Positions 1 through 5,318 of a DNA stretch of 5,318 nt are shown piece after piece. Every line of letters starts with the position of its first letter. Position 1 is the stretch's first letter. A program made the position numbers and the translations under genes. The stretch lies in NCBI RefSeq assembly GCF_044324875.1, contig NZ_CP172190.1, one strand, 5' to 3'. The DNA is from Escherichia coli. GTDB taxonomy: Bacteria; Pseudomonadota; Gammaproteobacteria; Enterobacterales; Enterobacteriaceae. Under the pieces are notes generated by a model that was given only the letters and a program-made list of their open reading frames with translations, did no database searches and was not told where the DNA came from.

Positions 1-147
1 GAATGTCGGGCTATTGGCAAGAGCATTGCGAAATACACGCACAGGAACTTCACGCCGGAAACTTTCGCACAGTATGTGGCTGATACGCACACGCCAGAAA
101 TTCAGGCTGCACGAGATGAAGCCGAAAAGCAAATATGCCATGACTAA
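1..147 (+). CDS. 3' end of an upstream gene (last ~48 codons; product not recognised)
   Basis: Frame 1 is open from the window edge to TAA at 145-147 and translates to a natural-looking acidic/helical tail (...AIGKSIAKYTHRNFTPETFAQYVADTHTPEIQAARDEAEKQICHD). The antisense frame is also open but is Arg/Cys/Phe-rich, as expected for the non-coding strand. The start lies outside the window. Confidence 0.35.
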   Translation, partial: ECRAIGKSIAKYTHRNFTPETFAQYVADTHTPEIQAARDEAEKQICHD

Positions 148-173
148 GGCTGTATGAGTATAAAAACGGCGTT

Positions 174-746
174 TCACGTCAAGATAAAATAAATACCTGT
201 ACCTAATATAAAAATGGAGCTACATATACTTATGTACCTTGAGAATGACGGAGTTAATTTATCCCTTATCGTCAAGCTAATAGCTATGTAAATAATATCT
301 GTCAGGAATGATATAAATATAAACAAAACACCCAATATAAAGAAATTTAATGCGATATTTGTATTATCATCTATAAATGCTGGTATTAATGCCGCAAAGA
401 ATAAATACGCCTTTGGGTTTAATAATGGTATAAGTAAAGGTTTTTGTACTTTGCTTTTTTTGTTTTTTTTATTAATTAAACCCATTACCCCTATGTATAT
501 TAAATAGCTTCCACCTAAGATCTTTATAATGTAAAAGTGTTGTTCTATGCTGGATGTTGAAGATAACGTGAAAAGAGATATTACCATGACGATTGCTTCG
601 CCAGATCTTATGTATACACTTGTTTTTATTGATGATTTAAGTCCTTGTGAAAAGGCGTTGTTTATAACCAATGCAACACCAGGTCCTATTGATATAGTTT
701 GAGATAAAGTTACGATAGCAAATGAAAATAATGTTGAATATTCCAT
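174..746 (-). CDS. LysE/RhtB-family amino-acid exporter (small six-helix inner-membrane translocator)
   Basis: 190-aa ORF, strongly hydrophobic with several predicted transmembrane segments. It carries an N-terminal SIGPG motif and a central PLLIPLLNPKAYLFFAALIPAFID segment matching the NPK...LFF...P(A/Q)FI signature of the LysE/RhtB family. Size is typical (about 190-210 aa). The gene is very AT-rich compared with the rest of the window. No strong Shine-Dalgarno is visible upstream of the ATG at 746. Confidence 0.75.
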   Translation of the reverse strand: MEYSTLFSFAIVTLSQTISIGPGVALVINNAFSQGLKSSIKTSVYIRSGEAIVMVISLFTLSSTSSIEQHFYIIKILGGSYLIYIGVMGLINKKNKKSKVQKPLLIPLLNPKAYLFFAALIPAFIDDNTNIALNFFILGVLFIFISFLTDIIYIAISLTIRDKLTPSFSRYISICSSIFILGTGIYFILT

Positions 747-1154
747 ATTTACTTACCATGATATATTTCGCGGGAGCTTTTCATATACATACTCCATTTA
801 TTCTCGGAGCGGATATACATTCATTTATAAAGTCATTCATTTTTCTATCCCCTGGTCTGAGTTTTTGCATTTGTTGTTATGACTATTTAATGCTAATTAT
901 CAGATAACCTTTTTTACACGCCATAAACACGATTATGATTGATGTTTTATATTGTCGATATTTCGTTGTCCAGACTGTATATGTCTGGAAATTTGTTTGC
1001 ATACGGGTTCGTTCCGTTTAGCTGGCTTTTTGGATGAGAAAGTTTGCTGTTTTGACCCGTTCGCGCTTCTGAACGGGGGTTTGGTGTTCTTTTGCGCGGC
1101 GTCTCCGATCCGCTCCCACACCTCCAAACCAAATACCGAAACCCTGCAAACCAA

Positions 1155-1232
1155 GCGAGTGGCGGCTCCGCTCGCCGCAGCCCCAGCGACCGAGCGTTAG
1201 CGAGCAAGTGGGCGAGGAAGCGGAAGTGAACC
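1155..1232. other. Putative primosome assembly site (PriA-type ssi/pas-like hairpins) flanking the origin
   Basis: GC-rich island in an otherwise AT-rich origin region. CCGCTCGCCGCAGCCCCAGCGACCGAGCGTTAGCGAGCAAGTGGGCGAGGAAGCGGAAGTGAACC closely parallels, from memory, the pMB1/pBR322 sequence just downstream of the ColE1-type origin (CCGCTCGCCGCAGCCGAACGACCGAGCGCAGCGAGTCAGTGAGCGAGGAAGCGGAAGAGCG), including the GAAGCGG core. A 6-bp stem hairpin CGCTCG...CGAGCG lies at 1169-1196. Confidence 0.35.
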
Positions 1233-1301
1233 GTAGCCAGGTTGAGCACATACGCACGGTTTTTCGACAGGTGATATGCGCCGAACCCGCATGAATACTG
1301 G

Positions 1302-1310
1302 ATTTCCACA
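1302..1310 (+). promoter_or_regulatory. DnaA-box-like 9-mer (ATTTCCACA)
   Basis: 8 of 9 match to the TTWTNCACA DnaA box consensus, in the same orientation as the two other boxes, upstream of the AT-rich repeats. Confidence 0.4.
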
Positions 1311-1397
1311 GGGTTGAGCGGGGTTTTTGCTAAAGTCCGCGAAGTGGATTTTTGTAACATCTTGTTTTTTCTTGTTTTTCCTTTTGCGCACCCCAAG

Positions 1398-1406
1398 TTT
1401 TCCACA
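1398..1406 (+). promoter_or_regulatory. DnaA box (TTTTCCACA)
   Basis: Full match to the relaxed consensus TTWTNCACA, located about 20 bp upstream of the AT-rich 13-mer repeats, the expected place for DnaA-assisted unwinding. Confidence 0.5.
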
Positions 1407-1426
1407 GGCTCGCTGTTAAGTTTTTA

Positions 1427-1465
1427 GATCTTGTTTTTAAGATCTTGTTTTTAATACTTGTTTTA
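1427..1465. repeat. AT-rich DNA unwinding element: three tandem 13-mers (GATCTTGTTTTTA x2, ATACTTGTTTTA) with Dam GATC sites
   Basis: Direct repeats at 1427-1439, 1441-1453 and 1454-1465, resembling the oriC 13-mer consensus GATCTnTTnTTTT. Further copies of CTTGTTTTT lie at 1361-1369 and 1371-1379. The block sits between a DnaA box and the iterons. Confidence 0.6.
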
Positions 1466-1508
1466 GGGTCGAATTTTCTTATGGAATTCAAGAGTTTAGA
1501 AGACTATA

Positions 1509-1591
1509 GGTAATATAATTTAAGGTAAAGGCAATATGATTTAAGGTGGATAGGCAATATGATTTAAGGTAAAGGCAATATGATTTAAGGT
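1509..1591. repeat. Iterons: four direct repeats with ~21-23 bp periodicity (core GGCAATATGATTTAAGGT)
   Basis: Exact 18-mer GGCAATATGATTTAAGGT at 1530-1547, 1553-1570 and 1574-1591, plus a degenerate copy GGTAATATAATTTAAGGT at 1509-1526. The spacing of about two helical turns and the position directly upstream of a Rep_3 gene are the classic iteron arrangement. Confidence 0.85.
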
Positions 1592-1592
1592 A

Positions 1593-1601
1593 ATATCCAC
1601 A
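1593..1601 (+). promoter_or_regulatory. DnaA-box-like 9-mer (ATATCCACA) between iterons and the rep promoter
   Basis: 8 of 9 match to TTATCCACA, immediately after the last iteron. Confidence 0.4.
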
Positions 1602-1617
1602 GGAAAAGGGATATTAA

Positions 1618-1658
1618 AATTAAATCATATTGCCTTTACCTAAAGGAATGTTTATATT
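1618..1658 (+). promoter_or_regulatory. rep promoter (-35 TTGCCT at 1630-1635, 17-bp spacer, -10 TATATT at 1653-1658) overlapped by an inverted iteron (autoregulatory operator)
   Basis: 1622-1640 is the exact reverse complement of the 19-bp iteron core GGTAAAGGCAATATGATTT; extended to about 24 bp there is one mismatch. Inverted-iteron operators over the rep promoter are characteristic of Rep_3 initiators (dimer binding, autorepression). The -35 element lies inside this inverted repeat. A GAGGG Shine-Dalgarno sits at 1678-1682, 7 nt before the ATG at 1690. Confidence 0.6.
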
Positions 1659-1689
1659 TTACTCATTGCCTTAGGTTGAGGGATTTACA

Positions 1690-2391
1690 ATGTCGGATCT
1701 GATTGCCTACAAATCCAATGCACTGGTTGAGGCCAGCTATAAATTGACTCTTCAGGAACAGCGATTCTTGTTACTTTGCATTGGTCGATTGAAGTCGGGT
1801 TCTGATGCAGAATCCACTGAATTGCAAAAGACCATGACTGTTACCGCCGAAGAGTATTTCGACTCATTCCCTGATATGGGGCGGAAAAATGCCGAGGTTC
1901 AGCTACAGGAAGCAATTGATCGTTTGTGGGACAGGTCGATCATCCTTAAGGACGATGAGAAGCGCGAGGAGTTCCGCTGGATCCAGTATCGGGCACAGTA
2001 CGCTAAAGGTGAGGGCAAAGCCCAAATCACTTTTTCAGATGCGGTCATGCCTTATCTGACACAGTTGAAGGGGCAATTTACTAGAGTTGTAATTAAGAAT
2101 ATCTCCAATTTATCAAGAAGTTACAGCATAAGAATATACGAACTTCTCCAGCAATTCCGCAGCACAGGGGAACGTATTATCGCCCTCGATGATTTTCGCT
2201 CAATGCTTGATATAGAGCATAAATATCAAACATATAAGTCTCTGAACCAGCAATTATTAAGACCTTGCGTTGACGAACTGAATCAAAAAAGCGACTTGGC
2301 TGTAACGCTTGAGACGATCAAGAAGGGGCGCACGGTTGTAGCCCTGCATTTTCGCTTCAAGGAAGACAAACAGATCAAGATGACGATCTAA
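1690..2391 (+). CDS. repA: Replication initiator protein, Rep_3 family (iteron-binding RepA/RepE/pi-type)
   Basis: 233-aa ORF with good Shine-Dalgarno and promoter, directly downstream of the iterons. The N-terminus (YKSNALVEASYKLTLQEQRFLLLCIGRL) and the segment YSIRIYELLQQF...LDDFRSMLDIEHKY...YKSLNQQLLRPCVDELNQKSDL...KKGRTVVALHFRF parallel, from memory, pSC101 RepA, F RepE and pPS10 RepA. Length is within the family range (about 230-320 aa). Confidence 0.9.
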   Translation: MSDLIAYKSNALVEASYKLTLQEQRFLLLCIGRLKSGSDAESTELQKTMTVTAEEYFDSFPDMGRKNAEVQLQEAIDRLWDRSIILKDDEKREEFRWIQYRAQYAKGEGKAQITFSDAVMPYLTQLKGQFTRVVIKNISNLSRSYSIRIYELLQQFRSTGERIIALDDFRSMLDIEHKYQTYKSLNQQLLRPCVDELNQKSDLAVTLETIKKGRTVVALHFRFKEDKQIKMTI

Positions 2392-2402
2392 AATCGATTT
2401 TA
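2389..2402. repeat. 14-bp perfect palindrome TAAAATCGATTTTA overlapping the rep stop codon (copy 1)
   Basis: Self-complementary sequence read directly. The 13-mer AAAATCGATTTTA recurs exactly 90 bp downstream. Candidate protein-binding site; function unknown. Confidence 0.5.
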
Positions 2403-2410
2403 AGGCATCT

Positions 2411-2437
2411 AAAACGCCATCTGGTTCGTTTTTTTGG
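2411..2437 (+). terminator. Possible weak intrinsic terminator downstream of rep
   Basis: AAAACGCCATCTGGTTCGTTTTTTT: imperfect A/U-rich stem (AACGCCA / TGG..CGTT) followed by a 7-T tract, 20 bp after the rep stop. Confidence 0.35.
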
Positions 2438-2479
2438 TGTCAGGTATGCGATGGTACTACCAAGCAAATAAATTGCGTC

Positions 2480-2492
2480 AAAATCGATTTTA
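2480..2492. repeat. Second copy of the palindromic 13-mer AAAATCGATTTTA
   Basis: Exact repeat of the palindrome at the rep stop codon. Confidence 0.5.
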
Positions 2493-2774
2493 GAGAGCGG
2501 TATGGCAAACCATGTCGAACATTACTTGTGTTACTTGACGTGAGAGATGCGTTAATGCCGCCAGCAGCAGTCCCCCATCGAAGTGACTCATGTGTGACTA
2601 AAGAGCAAGCCTGAGCAACGTAGGAATCTCCAACCTTCAGGACGGGATGGATATCAAGCACCAGGGCACACTTGAAAACAAAACCTCGCCTCTGGCAAAG
2701 CGCGTCCTTTCACGATGACGTAGAGGTATTTGAATATCTGTAGGAGTTCATCACGCTATTTTAACGCTTAAAAA

Positions 2775-2840
2775 GCGCGTTTCTGATTGTGTAACTAAAC
2801 ACAGGTAGTAATTAGTAGGTGTGGGGGGGCAGAAACGCGC
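2775..2840. repeat. Inverted-repeat pair A: GCGCGTTTCTG (2775-2785) and CAGAAACGCGC (2830-2840), 44-bp spacer
   Basis: Perfect 11-bp inverted repeat read directly. It shares the 10-bp core CGCGTTTCTG with pair B at 3310-3373. The spacer contains a G7 run. Candidate operator pair or hairpin. Confidence 0.5.
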
Positions 2841-3180
2841 AATTAATATTTATCGTGAATTTGATTTTATGTCTAGTATCGAGAAACAGAATATAAAAAG
2901 ATTATCTTTGGAAATATAGAAAAAAAATAAAATAATAAACTAAAAACAATCAAAAAATAATAAATATTACACTACAATATGGCAATAATATATTCATTCA
3001 TATAGTGATATACGCTATGGTTTTCAAAATTTTCCTTGAGCTGAAGAACGGAGTTTTATGGCAAACGAGGTAATCTTGCACAGGAAAAATAGGTTGTATC
3101 TATGTCATGGTTTTGTTATTTTTTTTTGCTCAGTTATTGATGGTCAATATGTAAAATAAATCAGGTACTTCCTTACACTT

Positions 3181-3207
3181 ACCCTCATTCATTGAGGGTT
3201 TTTTTTA
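3181..3207 (+). terminator. Rho-independent terminator (plus strand)
   Basis: ACCCTCA-TTCAT-TGAGGGT: 7-bp GC-containing stem with a 5-nt loop, followed immediately by a run of 8 T. No T tract on the opposite strand, so it is unidirectional. No CDS lies upstream, suggesting it ends a small RNA or a decayed gene transcript. Confidence 0.7.
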
Positions 3208-3218
3208 TCCATATCTAA

Positions 3219-3531
3219 GTTGACATCCTCCATGCCCTGAAGGACGGGGTTTTACAGCACACCGGATAACTATCTCGACATGGATATTGATACACGTTAA
3301 AAATACGTGACGCGTTTCTGGCAGATATCTGAGGTCTATTTCGCCGTGTTAGCCACACTGTCAGAAACGCGTTCAATTTCTCCCGTTGAGCTGATATGCT
3401 CATCACCGCAATCACGGTAGTGTCCGAAGACGAACCGTTAATGCATCTTCCCCCCGATACTGGGCTTTCGGGGGGAATATTTACTCGGTGCGCCGTAAAA
3501 CCCCGTCCTTCAGGGCATGGAGGATGTCAAC
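3219..3531. repeat. 313-bp element bounded by perfect 37-bp terminal inverted repeats (MITE-like element or invertible segment); interior 239 bp
   Basis: 3219-3255 GTTGACATCCTCCATGCCCTGAAGGACGGGGTTTTAC is the exact reverse complement of 3495-3531. The interior contains its own inverted-repeat pair (3310-3373) and a 9-bp G/C stem hairpin (3449-3476). No convincing CDS inside, and no target-site duplication is evident at the boundaries. Confidence 0.6.
3310..3373. repeat. Inverted-repeat pair B: ACGCGTTTCTG (3310-3320) and CAGAAACGCGT (3363-3373), 42-bp spacer
   Basis: Perfect 11-bp inverted repeat (15 of 16 if extended), sharing the CGCGTTTCTG core with pair A. It lies inside the 37-bp-IR element. 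Confidence 0.5.
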
Positions 3532-3610
3532 ACGAATCCCCTATCTTCTTTTCAGTAAGAAACGGTCATTGAAAACTTATATAACACTACTTTTGGTGTG
3601 TATTTTGCGA

Positions 3611-3643
3611 TAAAAATATCCCCTATCCTAATGATAGGGGATA
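3611..3643 (-). terminator. Rho-independent terminator (minus strand)
   Basis: Plus-strand TATCCCCTATC-CTAAT-GATAGGGGATA forms an 11-bp stem (3617-3627 / 3633-3643). On the minus strand the stem is followed by A then UUUUU (plus-strand A-run 3612-3616). It is convergent with the plus-strand terminator at 3181-3207, so the two bracket the IR-bounded element. Confidence 0.55.
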
Positions 3644-3745
3644 CAAACGATGAATTAACAGTTCTTAATTCTCACGTGAAAAGATAGATTTTAACGAAGA
3701 CACAATCAGCAGTCTTATATCGAATGGCTATCGATCCTGAATCCT

Positions 3746-3838
3746 GATGAGTGGGGATGTTTCTGTACTACTAATGAAAAGCTATCCGGCTAGAGACTTT
3801 ACGATACAGAAACACCCCTCTTTCTTTTATCTCATCAG
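3746..3838. repeat. Long imperfect inverted repeat / hairpin (CTGATGAG...TGTTTCTGTA // TACAGAAACA...CTCATCAG)
   Basis: Outer 8-bp arms CTGATGAG / CTCATCAG and inner 10-bp arms TGTTTCTGTA / TACAGAAACA pair, with an asymmetric internal loop. Orientation and function are unknown. Confidence 0.4.
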
Positions 3839-4376
3839 ATGCCATAGCGCAAAACAATTTCGTTTCACAGATGTGACTTACAATCAAACTGTGCAACATA
3901 AATCACAAAACAAGAAGGTTTTGTTATTATTTTGTTGATGAGTTGTTTTTCGTTGGTTGTTTTTTTGAGGCGTACATACGCGCACAAATGTAAAACTAAA
4001 TTCGTGTTTTCGATAATTTTAAGGCCACAATCATTATGGCATTTTTTATCCTGATCGCCGTCAAAATCTGTCCTTCATGGCAGGATTTACGGCGATCCGG
4101 ATAACACCAAAGATACCTACATGCTCATTCCCCTGTGGTTTCCAGGATATCTTTCCTGTTTTCTGTGCTGTTCATCGCGCCGCCATACCCCGTAACGACT
4201 GCGCTCAGTACCCCTGAAATTTCGCTCGCCGGAAACACGCGGGTGTTGTTTTAACGTGTCCCGGTAGCGGTGTCCAGGCAGGTATGCTTCCGCCAGCGGA
4301 GTTGTTGATCTTGTGTTCTGTTTTTGGCTAGTATTTGTCCGAAAACCTGTCGCTCCGGCGACCAACTAATCTCCCG

Positions 4377-4471
4377 GTGGTCTGAGAGGGAGGCTTACGC
4401 GACCACACTGTCATCTCAGGATGACCAGCCAATGTTCCGGCAGTCTGAGAGGAGCGCCTTCGGGTGACTGC
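4377..4471. other. Two tandem structurally homologous hairpins (candidate structured RNA or protein-binding motif pair)
   Basis: Hairpin 1: stem GTGGTC (4377-4382) / GACCAC (4401-4406). Hairpin 2: stem GCAGTC (4440-4445) / GACTGC (4466-4471). The stem sequences differ but each keeps perfect pairing (compensatory changes). Both loops begin TGAGAGG and contain an inner mini-hairpin (GC-TTAC-GC; GCC-TTCG-GGT, a UUCG tetraloop). Both are preceded by CCGG. A further tetraloop hairpin GTCATC-TCAG-GATGAC lies between them at 4410-4425. Confidence 0.35.
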
Positions 4472-4934
4472 AATATCCCATGAGCCTGGAAGAGGATGCC
4501 TATATGGCGGCAACATCCGTTTAGCCTCTGGAAACGGATGTCACCAGTAGCTGGTGACTGAGGTACGTTATTTTTACCTTCGGATTACCCGTACGGTTTT
4601 GTATGTCATGAAACTTACGAGTTTTCCTCTCGCAGAGTGGCGAAATGCCTTATATATCTGCGTCTTAAAGATTTTCTGTCAGGCTGCATGAGCTTCTTGT
4701 GACTGTGCGCACGGCATAAGGCCATTTGAAATTTGGCTGCTTGCGTGTGTACGTGGAGTCTGAAGCTGTGCGGCGTCACTTGCGTGCGACCGGAGGGAAC
4801 ACCAAGTGACGCCACAACAATCTGCCCTGAAAGCAGCATCACGTAAGGCCTGCCAGAAAATCGTCGCTCGTGACCAGCGTTCTGATGACCGTTTTGTCTT
4901 TCTGACAGCGTCTTTCAGTAACGTGTCCATGCCT

Positions 4935-4981
4935 TTCCGGCGCGTCCGTTTTCACGGACGGCCACGCCGGAATGTCTTTTT
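4935..4981 (+). terminator. Rho-independent terminator (plus strand), compound GC-rich hairpin plus U tract
   Basis: Outer stem CCGGCG (4937-4942) / CGCCGG (4965-4970) and inner stem CGTCCGT (4943-4949) / ACGGACG (4954-4960) with loop TTTC, followed by TGTCTTTTT (4973-4980). It lies inside the 66-aa ORF 4806-5006, which argues that ORF is not a real CDS. Confidence 0.55.
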
Positions 4982-5037
4982 AAACTTCATAATACATGAG
5001 AGGTAAGTGTATTAACTTGTTGAAAAAAGGAATAAAT

Positions 5038-5127
5038 ATGAAAAATCGTTCTGAAGTCGGAAGGCGTCATCGTAAGATGACGGGGAGTAAAAAATCGCCC
5101 TGGTGCACAGGTAGCGAACTCCTGTAA
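5038..5127 (+). CDS. Possible small basic ORF (29 aa, MKNRSEVGRRHRKMTGSKKSPWCTGSELL); leader-peptide-like, speculative
   Basis: ATG at 5038 is preceded by AAGGA (5027-5031) with 6-nt spacing. The ORF is very short with no recognisable family, and lies about 55 bp downstream of the terminator at 4935-4981. Confidence 0.2.
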   Translation: MKNRSEVGRRHRKMTGSKKSPWCTGSELL

Positions 5128-5263
5128 AAACTCAACATGTGCAAGCTCTGCTACATCGACATCAAACGAGCCAGGAAGGCGAGCAACCGCGTTACAGAGC
5201 CGTCCGTGATGACGAAAAACTAACAATATCAACGATCTGGTCTGTTTATCGGAAGGGCATCTC

Positions 5264-5318
5264 ATGCAGTTGAACTTTCAGAACGGATGGTTTTCTGCAT
5301 CTTTTTTAACAGGGGGAT
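5264..5318 (+). CDS. Possible 5' end of a downstream gene running off the window (MQLNFQNGWFSASFLTGG...)
   Basis: ATG at 5264 is preceded by GGAAGGG (5251-5257) with 6-nt spacing. Only 18 codons are visible. The same sequence could alternatively fold as a weak hairpin followed by a T tract (5295-5307), so the call is tentative. Confidence 0.25.
   Translation, partial: MQLNFQNGWFSASFLTGG

Follow-up and report, generated by a model that had tools for sequence, protein, structure and literature searches.

An apparently non-coding STAXI–EFASI module from an integrative conjugative element on a small Escherichia coli plasmid

STAXI and EFASI are published RNA motifs of unknown function (PMC2864571; Rfam text in PMC12370729), and both are typed as small RNA (sRNA) in Rfam. 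STAXI (RF01728) is abundant in MPF_G integrative conjugative elements (ICEs), where it lies beside ssb, topoisomerase, anti-restriction and integrase genes (PMC2864571; PMC5587801). The name of EFASI (RF02957) stands for "Enterobacteriaceae, Frequently Around STAXI and Integrases"; by the Rfam text quoted in PMC12370729, the motif typically follows STAXI at a distance of several hundred bp and precedes integrase genes, the latter association being frequent and not obligatory, and the same source reports RNA of both motifs, detected by reverse transcription quantitative PCR (RT-qPCR), in vesicle preparations of another strain. Here we analyzed a 5,318-nt stretch of Escherichia coli DNA (the whole of which is called the window; RefSeq assembly GCF_044324875.1, contig NZ_CP172190.1) that carries both motifs. 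Positions 4806–5318 had been described in an initial annotation, made from the letters alone, as compatible with a leader-peptide or attenuator type control region for a gene beginning at the window edge.

Two further kinds of described system bear comparison with this locus, namely the leader-peptide attenuators (trp, his, pheA) and the Frpo/ssi promoters of F and ColIb-P9. In Frpo, it is the transferred strand (the template for the genes downstream) that folds, with the −35 and −10 boxes placed in its stem.

Origin and organization of the STAXI–EFASI module

The whole window is a complete circular plasmid of 5.3 kb. It is matched along its length by two circular plasmids of E. coli (5,319 and 5,310 bp), and the joined last 150 and first 150 bases of the window are 100% contiguous in both. 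Window 4344–5318 shows 99.5% identity to a block of E. coli chromosomes that is intergenic and unannotated and that sits in an ICE of the SPI-7/ICEclc family of ~80 kb. This parent ICE carries genes for ParA, an SPI-7-type DnaB helicase, ParB, topoisomerase III and Ssb, TIGR037xx conjugation genes, a type IVb pilus operon, a TraI relaxase and a tyrosine integrase beside tRNA-Phe. In the ICE, the block ends 8 nt ahead of the ATG of a 305-aa Integrase_1/Phage_int_SAM_2 protein (PF12835, PF12834), which is followed on the same strand by small hypotheticals and by ArdA, ArdC, LPD29, DUF1281 or methylase genes. The ICE homology stops exactly at 5318, which marks a recombination junction. We consider it probable that the segment is a non-coding ICE RNA module of ~1 kb captured by the plasmid through recombination, with 4806–5318 as its downstream two-thirds.

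Rfam models were searched with cmscan (gathering scores, 40.5 bits for STAXI and 51.2 bits for EFASI). Both motifs were found on the + strand of the window with a gap of 478 nt, the same arrangement as in 8 other loci, and STAXI stands at the same position in all related loci. Every ICE or metagenome homolog whose downstream sequence is long enough has an Integrase_1 (PF12835) gene after EFASI; the plasmid itself has no integrase gene. The features of the module are as follows.

4305–4334, + strand: promoter-like site TTGATC (4305–4310)-N18-TAGTAT (4329–4334), with a predicted transcription start at ~4341.
4344–4408, + strand: extra STAXI-like repeat unit (…GGTCTGAGAGGGAGGCTTACGCGACC…), where the homology and thus the ICE-derived segment start.
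4409–4568, + strand: STAXI RNA motif (Rfam RF01728; 89.1 bits, E = 1.5e-18).
4770–4815, + strand: IR3, an invariant inverted-repeat hairpin, GGCGTCACTTG-N20-CAAGTGACGCC, from the comparative alignment.
4935–4981, + strand: HP2, a two-part hairpin (4935–4972) with the U-run TGTCTTTTT (4973–4981), terminator-like in the window allele.
4990–5014, + strand: IR1, the hairpin TAATACA-N11-TGTATTA, with compensatory changes across genera in 4/6 pairs.
5046–5168, + strand: EFASI RNA motif (Rfam RF02957; 71.7 bits, E = 2e-13, model positions 1–133 of 133).
5169–5235, + strand: EFASI 3′ extension past the end of the Rfam model, with the invariant stems GCC/GGC and CGUC/GACG.
5240–5288, + strand: HP5, a hairpin from the comparative alignment that encloses GGAAGGG and ATG 5264.
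5312–5317, + strand: GGGGGA, the orphaned ribosome-binding site of the lost ICE Integrase_1 gene, from the ICE comparison.

The comparison set comprised E. coli (three alleles, 81–99% identity), Klebsiella michiganensis, two Serratia marcescens, Edwardsiella ictaluri, Cedecea neteri and a 3.1 kb Rep_1 rolling-circle plasmid. To these were added 33 metagenome contigs anchored on conserved sequence just 3′ of EFASI, giving 28 unique full-length modules in total from five enterobacterial genera; a protein-anchored scan of species-representative genomes yielded 3 loci only. The order of elements (promoter, STAXI, IR3, spacer, HP2, IR1, EFASI, extension, HP5, Integrase_1 gene) is constant and recurs in Escherichia, Klebsiella, Serratia, Edwardsiella, Cedecea and the metagenome contigs. 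Wherever there was enough non-plasmid sequence, the Integrase_1 gene starts 156–164 nt past the anchor, and its ATG is preceded by GGGGGA, GGGAGA, AGGAGA or GGAGG.

A sigma-70-type promoter, TTGAC(G/A/C)-N17/18-TAnnnT, was found at a fixed distance upstream of the first STAXI in all ICE loci inspected (8/8, five genera), within flanks that are otherwise unalignable and in sequence that forms no hairpin. The promoter-like site of the window keeps the spacing to STAXI seen in the ICE loci (74 nt), and the ICE homology begins at 4344–4347, just past the predicted start at ~4341. Conservation extends from about the predicted transcription start to the ribosome-binding site, which is what a transcribed leader would show. 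A promoter scan of both strands of 4400–5318 detected no promoter-like site.

Conserved hairpins and the strand of folding

Over all predicted helices of the 28 unique sequences, 241 G·U pairs were counted against 13 A·C pairs, and the + strand folded more stably in 8/9 copies of EFASI and in 9/9 copies of HP5. The excess of G·U over A·C together with the better + strand folding indicates that EFASI and HP5 fold as sense-strand RNA. EFASI shows compensatory changes in several helices (15 G·U vs 1 A·C pairs in a nine-sequence alignment). Its 3′ extension is 70–100% identical across five genera, and both extension stems are invariant in 28/28 unique copies. HP5 has compensatory changes in 10/13 pairs, with 100 G·U vs 5 A·C. 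The window's own HP5 is weak: the fold of 5236–5318 has z = −0.74, and 36 of 200 shuffles were as stable. The initial annotation had described an ATG at 5264 with an upstream GGAAGGG that overlaps a weak hairpin plus T-run, and these are present; that hairpin (5262–5305), which overlaps the consensus HP5, has the same z = −0.74 and is not conserved.

The IR3 arms (11 + 11 nt with a fixed 20-nt spacer) are identical in 38/38 copies with enough sequence. One apical pair switches from GC to CG and the basal pair from CG to TA. IR3 also accounts for the start assigned to a 66-aa open reading frame (ORF) at 4806–5006. Its "Shine-Dalgarno" and GTG turned out to be the apical loop and the 3′ arm of this invariant hairpin: GTG 4806 falls in the 3′ arm, and the GGAGGG in the apical loop occurs only in the window allele, the other alleles having AAGGG, TAGGG or AAGCG.

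HP2 folds at −24.2 kcal/mol (z = −3.98 vs dinucleotide shuffles, with 1 of 200 shuffles as stable), so that the hairpin and T tract reported earlier at 4935–4981 inside the 66-aa ORF are present and stronger than chance. A simple terminator scan missed HP2 because its stem is in two parts. The core, CGTCCGT-TTTC-ACGGACG, is invariant and found in all but one copy, and the outer stem shows a few compensatory changes. The anatomy of an intrinsic terminator, a G+C-rich hairpin followed by a U-run, is present in the window, and the U-run is not conserved in the homologs: the tail TGTCTTTT has 6 T in 8 positions only in the window-type allele, against 5 in two others and only 3–4 in the L006-type, Klebsiella, Serratia, Edwardsiella and Cedecea copies. 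With an invariant core and a T-tract confined to the E. coli window allele, the terminator is lineage-specific. In that allele, HP2 plus its U-run is a credible predicted terminator inside the leader, and it is possible that HP2 acts there as a termination checkpoint. No alternative pairing for HP2 of the kind that would make a terminator/antiterminator switch was found. IR1 was considered as a recombinase core site and dropped, as its spacer is 11 nt vs 6–8 nt between alleles.

An invariant island, C(T/G)CGTGA, lies at 4867–4873 within the otherwise variable spacer (the "ORF body" of the 66-aa ORF). In the RNAalifold prediction, it forms a long-range pairing with 5193–5199 in the EFASI 3′ extension. 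The pairing is kept in 28/28 sequences, partly via G·U, with no two-sided compensatory change; it could be a tertiary or long-range contact, or chance.

STAXI and its neighborhood also vary in copy number and context. The extra STAXI-like unit is present in the window and in loci L004, L005 and L003 and is absent from L006–L014. A second STAXI copy was found in 7/8 examined ICE-type loci, 1–2 kb downstream of the Integrase_1 gene (L004 11807–11960; L005 11711–11863; L006 11072–11230; L007 7879–8031; L008 8016–8144; L012 5495–5646; L013 5492–5648); these second copies stand before the next same-strand gene run and lack the TTGAC-N18-TAnnnT promoter of the first. STAXI without EFASI occurs on IncK/IncI-type plasmids and O157 chromosomes. 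Only the STAXI part plus ~200 nt (window 4425–4785) is present at 78% identity in ~590 genomes, on chromosomes of O157:H7 and other Shiga toxin-producing E. coli, in copies that end within IR3 with no EFASI after. Just upstream of IR3 lies a conserved element of ~90 nt (4692–4781) with a small covarying hairpin at ~4719–4739 (GGCCA…TGGCT, GACCA…TGGTC, GGCCA…TGGCC); it is also free-standing in E. coli chromosomes at up to 3 places per genome, annotated within a hypothetical protein.

Small open reading frames and the plasmid junction

Four features concern the reading frames of 4806–5318 and the sequence that follows them on the circle.

4806–5006, + strand: 66-aa ORF, apparently a chance ORF, with a GTG start and GGAGGG at 4793–4798.
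5038–5127, + strand: 29-aa basic ORF with ATG 5038, apparently a chance ORF within EFASI.
5264–5318, + strand: ATG-5264 ORF of 18 codons, whose TGA stop spans the junction (5318 plus window 1–2).
1–114, + strand: fragment of a ColE2-like Rep/primase gene, a pseudogene called incomplete by the NCBI pipeline, which directly abuts the module.

The 66-aa ORF from GTG 4806 to the stop at 5006, with its GGAGGG, and the 29-aa basic ORF from ATG 5038 to 5127 exist as the initial annotation described them, the latter as part of a 43-aa ORF (4996–5127) in the ORF list. The 66-aa ORF had been called annotated, and RefSeq has no coding sequence for it in the near-identical plasmids; a 56-aa version is annotated, as a hypothetical protein, only in the 3.1 kb relative. 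Among the homologs, the equivalents of the 66-aa ORF are 66, 64, 61, 59, 56, 22, 15 or 12 aa long. The ratio of nonsynonymous to synonymous polymorphism (pN/pS) between intact copies is 0.83–0.96, other frames score no worse, and the differences at the three codon positions number 6, 5 and 6. The ORF body (4817–4930) is the least conserved part of the module, with 28–34% identity to the Klebsiella and Serratia copies and a 27–28 nt deletion in them. Equivalents of the 29-aa ORF, nearly all of which is spanned by EFASI, have 29–31, 30, 23, 14 or 1 codon or no ATG: the ATG is missing in the Klebsiella, Serratia and Cedecea copies, and L006-type alleles have a stop at codon 2. A 92-aa antisense ORF (4987–5265) is broken in most copies. 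ORF scans of both strands in nine homologs revealed no ORF common to the five genera, none of the three small ORFs is conserved among the 28 unique copies, and a Pfam search of the 66-aa, 43-aa, 51-aa and 92-aa ORFs gave no match. Protein-coding readings were rejected on these grounds (no Pfam match, no signal by pN/pS or codon position, no conserved ORF). On the sequence evidence, window 4806–5318 codes for no protein, and its small ORFs are by-products of the sequence; the proposal that they are leader peptides does not hold, as their lengths and starts vary, pN/pS is ~0.9 and the 29-aa ORF lies inside EFASI.

Since the window closes into a full circle, the question of a gene start at its edge could be answered directly. 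On the circularized window, the frame of ATG 5264 reads MQLNFQNGWFSASFLTGG and then stops, after 18 codons, and neither its start codon nor its reading frame is conserved among the homologs. The long gene expected to begin at 5264 is thus not there: no ORF runs on past 5318 on the circular molecule, which is an outcome that the initial annotation itself had named as speaking against its proposal. RefSeq annotation of both near-identical plasmids and inspection of the circularized window revealed no gene after ATG 5264 and no integrase; the annotated features of those plasmids are three only, a Rep_3 initiator, a LysE-family translocator and the gene fragment at window 1–114. The expectation of a gene at the edge is borne out in the parent ICE, where Integrase_1 starts 8 nt beyond the edge, and in the plasmid that gene is lost. 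Likewise, a structured untranslated region directly ahead of a gene exists in the parent conjugative elements and not in this plasmid. As a description of the plasmid, the leader-peptide or attenuator control region fails, with no conserved ORF, no gene behind it and a foreign pseudogene fragment as the next feature.

That fragment was considered as an integrase N-terminus and rejected: tblastn matched 1–114 to replication/primase genes of Col plasmids of ~3.9–4.8 kb, identifying a ColE2-like Rep/primase fragment, and the ICE homology ends at 5318. Window 1–1166, with LysE and the ColE2-like fragment, derives from other Col plasmids, and 1167–4186 is a Col8282-type backbone from which the gene of a 720-aa MobQ relaxase is deleted. 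Given these three sequence sources, the plasmid is a three-way mosaic and the right end of the module a recombination junction. To judge from its matches, the plasmid derives from a 5.6 kb MobQ plasmid of the Col8282 type and has lost the relaxase.

Several observations on the plasmid parts stand beside this account. Remnants of mobQ, its last ~70 nt and a 38-nt internal piece, lie on the minus strand at 4117–4218, and an 82-aa ORF on that strand (4117–4365) is a chimera whose C-terminus (…WRRDEQHRKQERYPGNHRGMSM) is that of MobQ. The ~125–140 nt of 4205–4343, between the mobQ remnant and the ICE segment, include TTGATC-N18-TAGTAT; in the complete E. coli genomes, matches were limited to four small plasmids, with none on a chromosome, and the stretch may come from an ICE allele outside the sample. 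An AT-rich, near-perfect palindrome of ~81 nt (1564–1644) just upstream of rep (1690–2391) gives spurious sub-threshold Rfam hits to "mir-586" and "mir-23" on both strands, is inverted in a related plasmid, and is probably part of the replication origin or of the rep control region. The ~1.9 kb of Col8282 backbone at 2400–4343 contain no ORF above 82 aa and no gene annotated in relatives; strong terminator-like hairpins occur there at 3181–3199 (+) and 3644–3616 (−), and segments 3219–3264 and 3477–3531 are repeated within a related plasmid.

The module is found on a second, unrelated small replicon, the Rep_1 rolling-circle plasmid, in an allele different from that of the Rep_3 plasmid represented by the window. 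This 3,140-bp E. coli plasmid (NZ_CP059920.1, L003/L011; pC194/pUB110-type Rep_1) has nothing in common with the MobQ plasmid. It holds little beyond rep and a diverged STAXI–EFASI allele, which lacks the promoter and points the other way from rep, and it was recovered again as a circular metagenome contig (OKVV01002709.1, L035). A single-strand origin was considered for this plasmid; the pC194-type nick motif CTTGATA, by which the displaced strand could be oriented, was not found in it. MOB-suite classes it as mobilizable though it has no relaxase, and the window-type plasmid as non-mobilizable. Strains GF4, TUM9803 and 64.1 each harbor both a module plasmid and the ICE. In the chicken isolate YZLc1-3, the ICE is of the parent type and has mcr-1.1 and a PAP2 gene between ISApl1 copies, in a segment (L016 1023–4612; NZ_CP123240.1 927022–930611) ~10 kb downstream of the module.

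Interpretation and comparison with known systems

The block has an ICE origin, a conserved promoter and conserved structures, EFASI and HP5 fold on the + strand, and no coding signal was detected. The likeliest role of the unit is one as RNA, as a long structured leader and/or as processed small RNAs that would tune Integrase_1 and the anti-restriction block, with chances that we judge to be about even. In the ICE, the sigma-70 promoter would drive a leader containing STAXI, IR3, the spacer, HP2, IR1, EFASI, the extension and HP5, followed by the ribosome-binding site of Integrase_1, which heads the same-strand run of ArdA, ArdC and methylase genes. In the window allele, HP2 and its U-run would end or attenuate a transcript of ~640 nt (~4341–4981), and the weaker hairpin and T-run at 5262–5305 may end an EFASI-containing RNA. 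As the plasmid has lost the cis target, its module would be either an inert passenger or a source of STAXI and EFASI RNAs acting on a co-resident ICE.

A number of observations weigh against an RNA function of this kind. IR3 and the HP2 core are invariant perfect palindromes that favor neither strand and carry no strand information, and their conservation could equally reflect a DNA site, be it protein-binding, an origin of transfer (oriT) or a single-stranded DNA hairpin. The covariation counts come from related sequences and reflect largely a few clade splits. The window promoter matches 8 of 12 consensus positions and scored under the scan threshold, and this promoter is missing ahead of the module in the 3.1 kb rolling-circle plasmid. 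Alignments upstream of EFASI revealed no consistent −10/−35 element, and the U-runs are not conserved. The experimental hint consists only of the RT-qPCR of STAXI and EFASI in the vesicles of the other strain (PMC12370729).

That STAXI and EFASI are instead two independent trans-acting sRNAs with ends of their own and no cis effect on the integrase gene is somewhat unlikely. The hairpins at 4935–4981 and 5262–5305 would be their terminators, so that this explanation overlaps with the leader account. The Rfam typing of both families as sRNA, the hairpin and T-run behind both units in the window allele, the occurrence of STAXI without EFASI on IncK/IncI-type plasmids and O157 chromosomes, and the reported presence of both RNAs in vesicle RNA (PMC12370729) are consistent with it; however, no conserved promoter was found ahead of EFASI, and U-runs are missing in most genera. 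Conservation is unbroken from EFASI through the extension and HP5 to the integrase ribosome-binding site, and the fixed integrase start, 156–164 nt past the anchor, fits a cis leader better. The initial proposal, in which translated leader peptides (the 66-aa, 29-aa and ATG-5264 ORFs) control the terminators and an edge gene, could draw on the purine-rich sequence before each ORF, on two terminator-like hairpins and on the gene that does start just past the edge in the parent ICE. It is scarcely credible against a circular plasmid without a following gene, an ATG-5264 ORF of 18 codons, a lack of any ORF conserved in length, start codon or frame, pN/pS of ~0.9, a "Shine-Dalgarno + GTG" within an invariant hairpin whose GGAGGG is private to the window allele, and a 29-aa ORF inside EFASI.

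An action at the DNA level, in which IR3 (4770–4815) and the HP2 core (4943–4960) form a cis element recognized as DNA or single-stranded DNA, appears unlikely. The ICE relaxase could use the element as an oriT, the element could serve for priming or single-strand initiation when the ICE enters a cell as a single strand, or Integrase_1 could bind it; small plasmids would keep the module as it lets them use a co-resident ICE. Both the IR3 arms and the HP2 core are strand-symmetric and invariant over five genera while their flanks fall to ~30% identity, and the module is found in different alleles on two unrelated small replicons (Rep_3 and Rep_1) that co-reside with the ICE in GF4, TUM9803 and 64.1. 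Here it occupies the site of the deleted MobQ relaxase region. The downstream ICE genes (ArdA, ArdC, methylase) resemble a leading region, and single-stranded DNA action of STAXI was raised as a possibility by its describers (PMC2864571). The strand evidence points the other way, in that the strand on which EFASI and HP5 fold is the sense strand for the genes that follow, the opposite of what a Frpo-type single-strand promoter driving them needs, and 4400–5318 holds no promoter-like hexamers. Moreover, the ICE relaxase gene is ~32 kb away, the window-type plasmid is non-mobilizable by MOB-suite, the module may be a mere passenger in a three-way mosaic plasmid, and the apical compensatory switch in IR3 favors a folded single strand over a duplex binding site. 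No mapped oriT for enterobacterial members of the parent ICE family was found in the literature searched. A more specific form of the idea, quite improbable in our view, is that STAXI–IR3–HP2–EFASI is a cis "hitch-hiking" cassette whose palindromes are read by a co-resident ICE as oriT or entry priming site, relaxase-less small plasmids (Rep_3 minus MobQ; Rep_1) having captured the block for ICE transfer or establishment. If true, two Rfam motifs left without a function since 2010 and 2017 would gain one.

With the ICE-derived RNA module as the preferred reading, the unit heads the Integrase_1/anti-restriction block in an ICE family that is widespread and includes carriers of mcr-1. Three small ORFs that annotation programs could call would be spurious, one being already annotated as a hypothetical protein in a relative. 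The gene-less plasmid copies offer a natural minimal construct for separating RNA action, in cis or in trans, from DNA action.

Compared with the leader-peptide attenuators of trp, his and pheA, the module shares a terminator-like hairpin in the untranslated region before a gene (in the ICE) and short ORFs that overlap it. It differs in that the ORFs are unconserved and without coding selection, the U-tracts are lineage-specific, the downstream gene is gone, and no conserved terminator/antiterminator switch pairing was identified. With the Frpo/ssi promoters it has in common repeated structured non-coding elements before anti-restriction and ssb-type genes, including the second STAXI downstream. 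Unlike them, it has its strand-informative structures on the sense strand and a conventional duplex promoter ahead, with no sequence similarity that speaks for homology. A Frpo-like single-strand promoter was unsupported as a candidate, as the strand asymmetry of EFASI and HP5 runs the wrong way and the stems hold no hexamers; IR3 and HP2 favor neither strand and do not bear on the question.

The closest relatives remain the two Rfam motifs themselves. STAXI lies at 4409–4568 as the upstream partner, outside 4806–5318, and the parent ICE has the ssb, topoisomerase, anti-restriction and integrase content of the published STAXI ICEs; here an extra repeat unit and a conserved promoter stand ahead of STAXI, of which the available text of the STAXI papers makes no mention. 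EFASI matches its model end to end, with STAXI 478 nt upstream and an integrase-family gene downstream in all ICE homologs. It departs from the description in that the plasmid copy has no integrase gene, conservation continues for ~65 nt past the 3′ end of the model, hairpins outside the model flank it, and its hosts extend beyond Enterobacteriaceae (Serratia, Edwardsiella). Rather than isolated elements, STAXI and EFASI appear to form two domains within a single conserved unit (~1 kb) that has its own promoter and at least four further conserved hairpins. Relative to the published text as far as it was available, what is new is the conserved promoter, together with four additional conserved hairpins and the extension of EFASI, which join both motifs into one unit, and the finding of that unit, stripped of its gene, on small plasmids of the Rep_3 and Rep_1 types.

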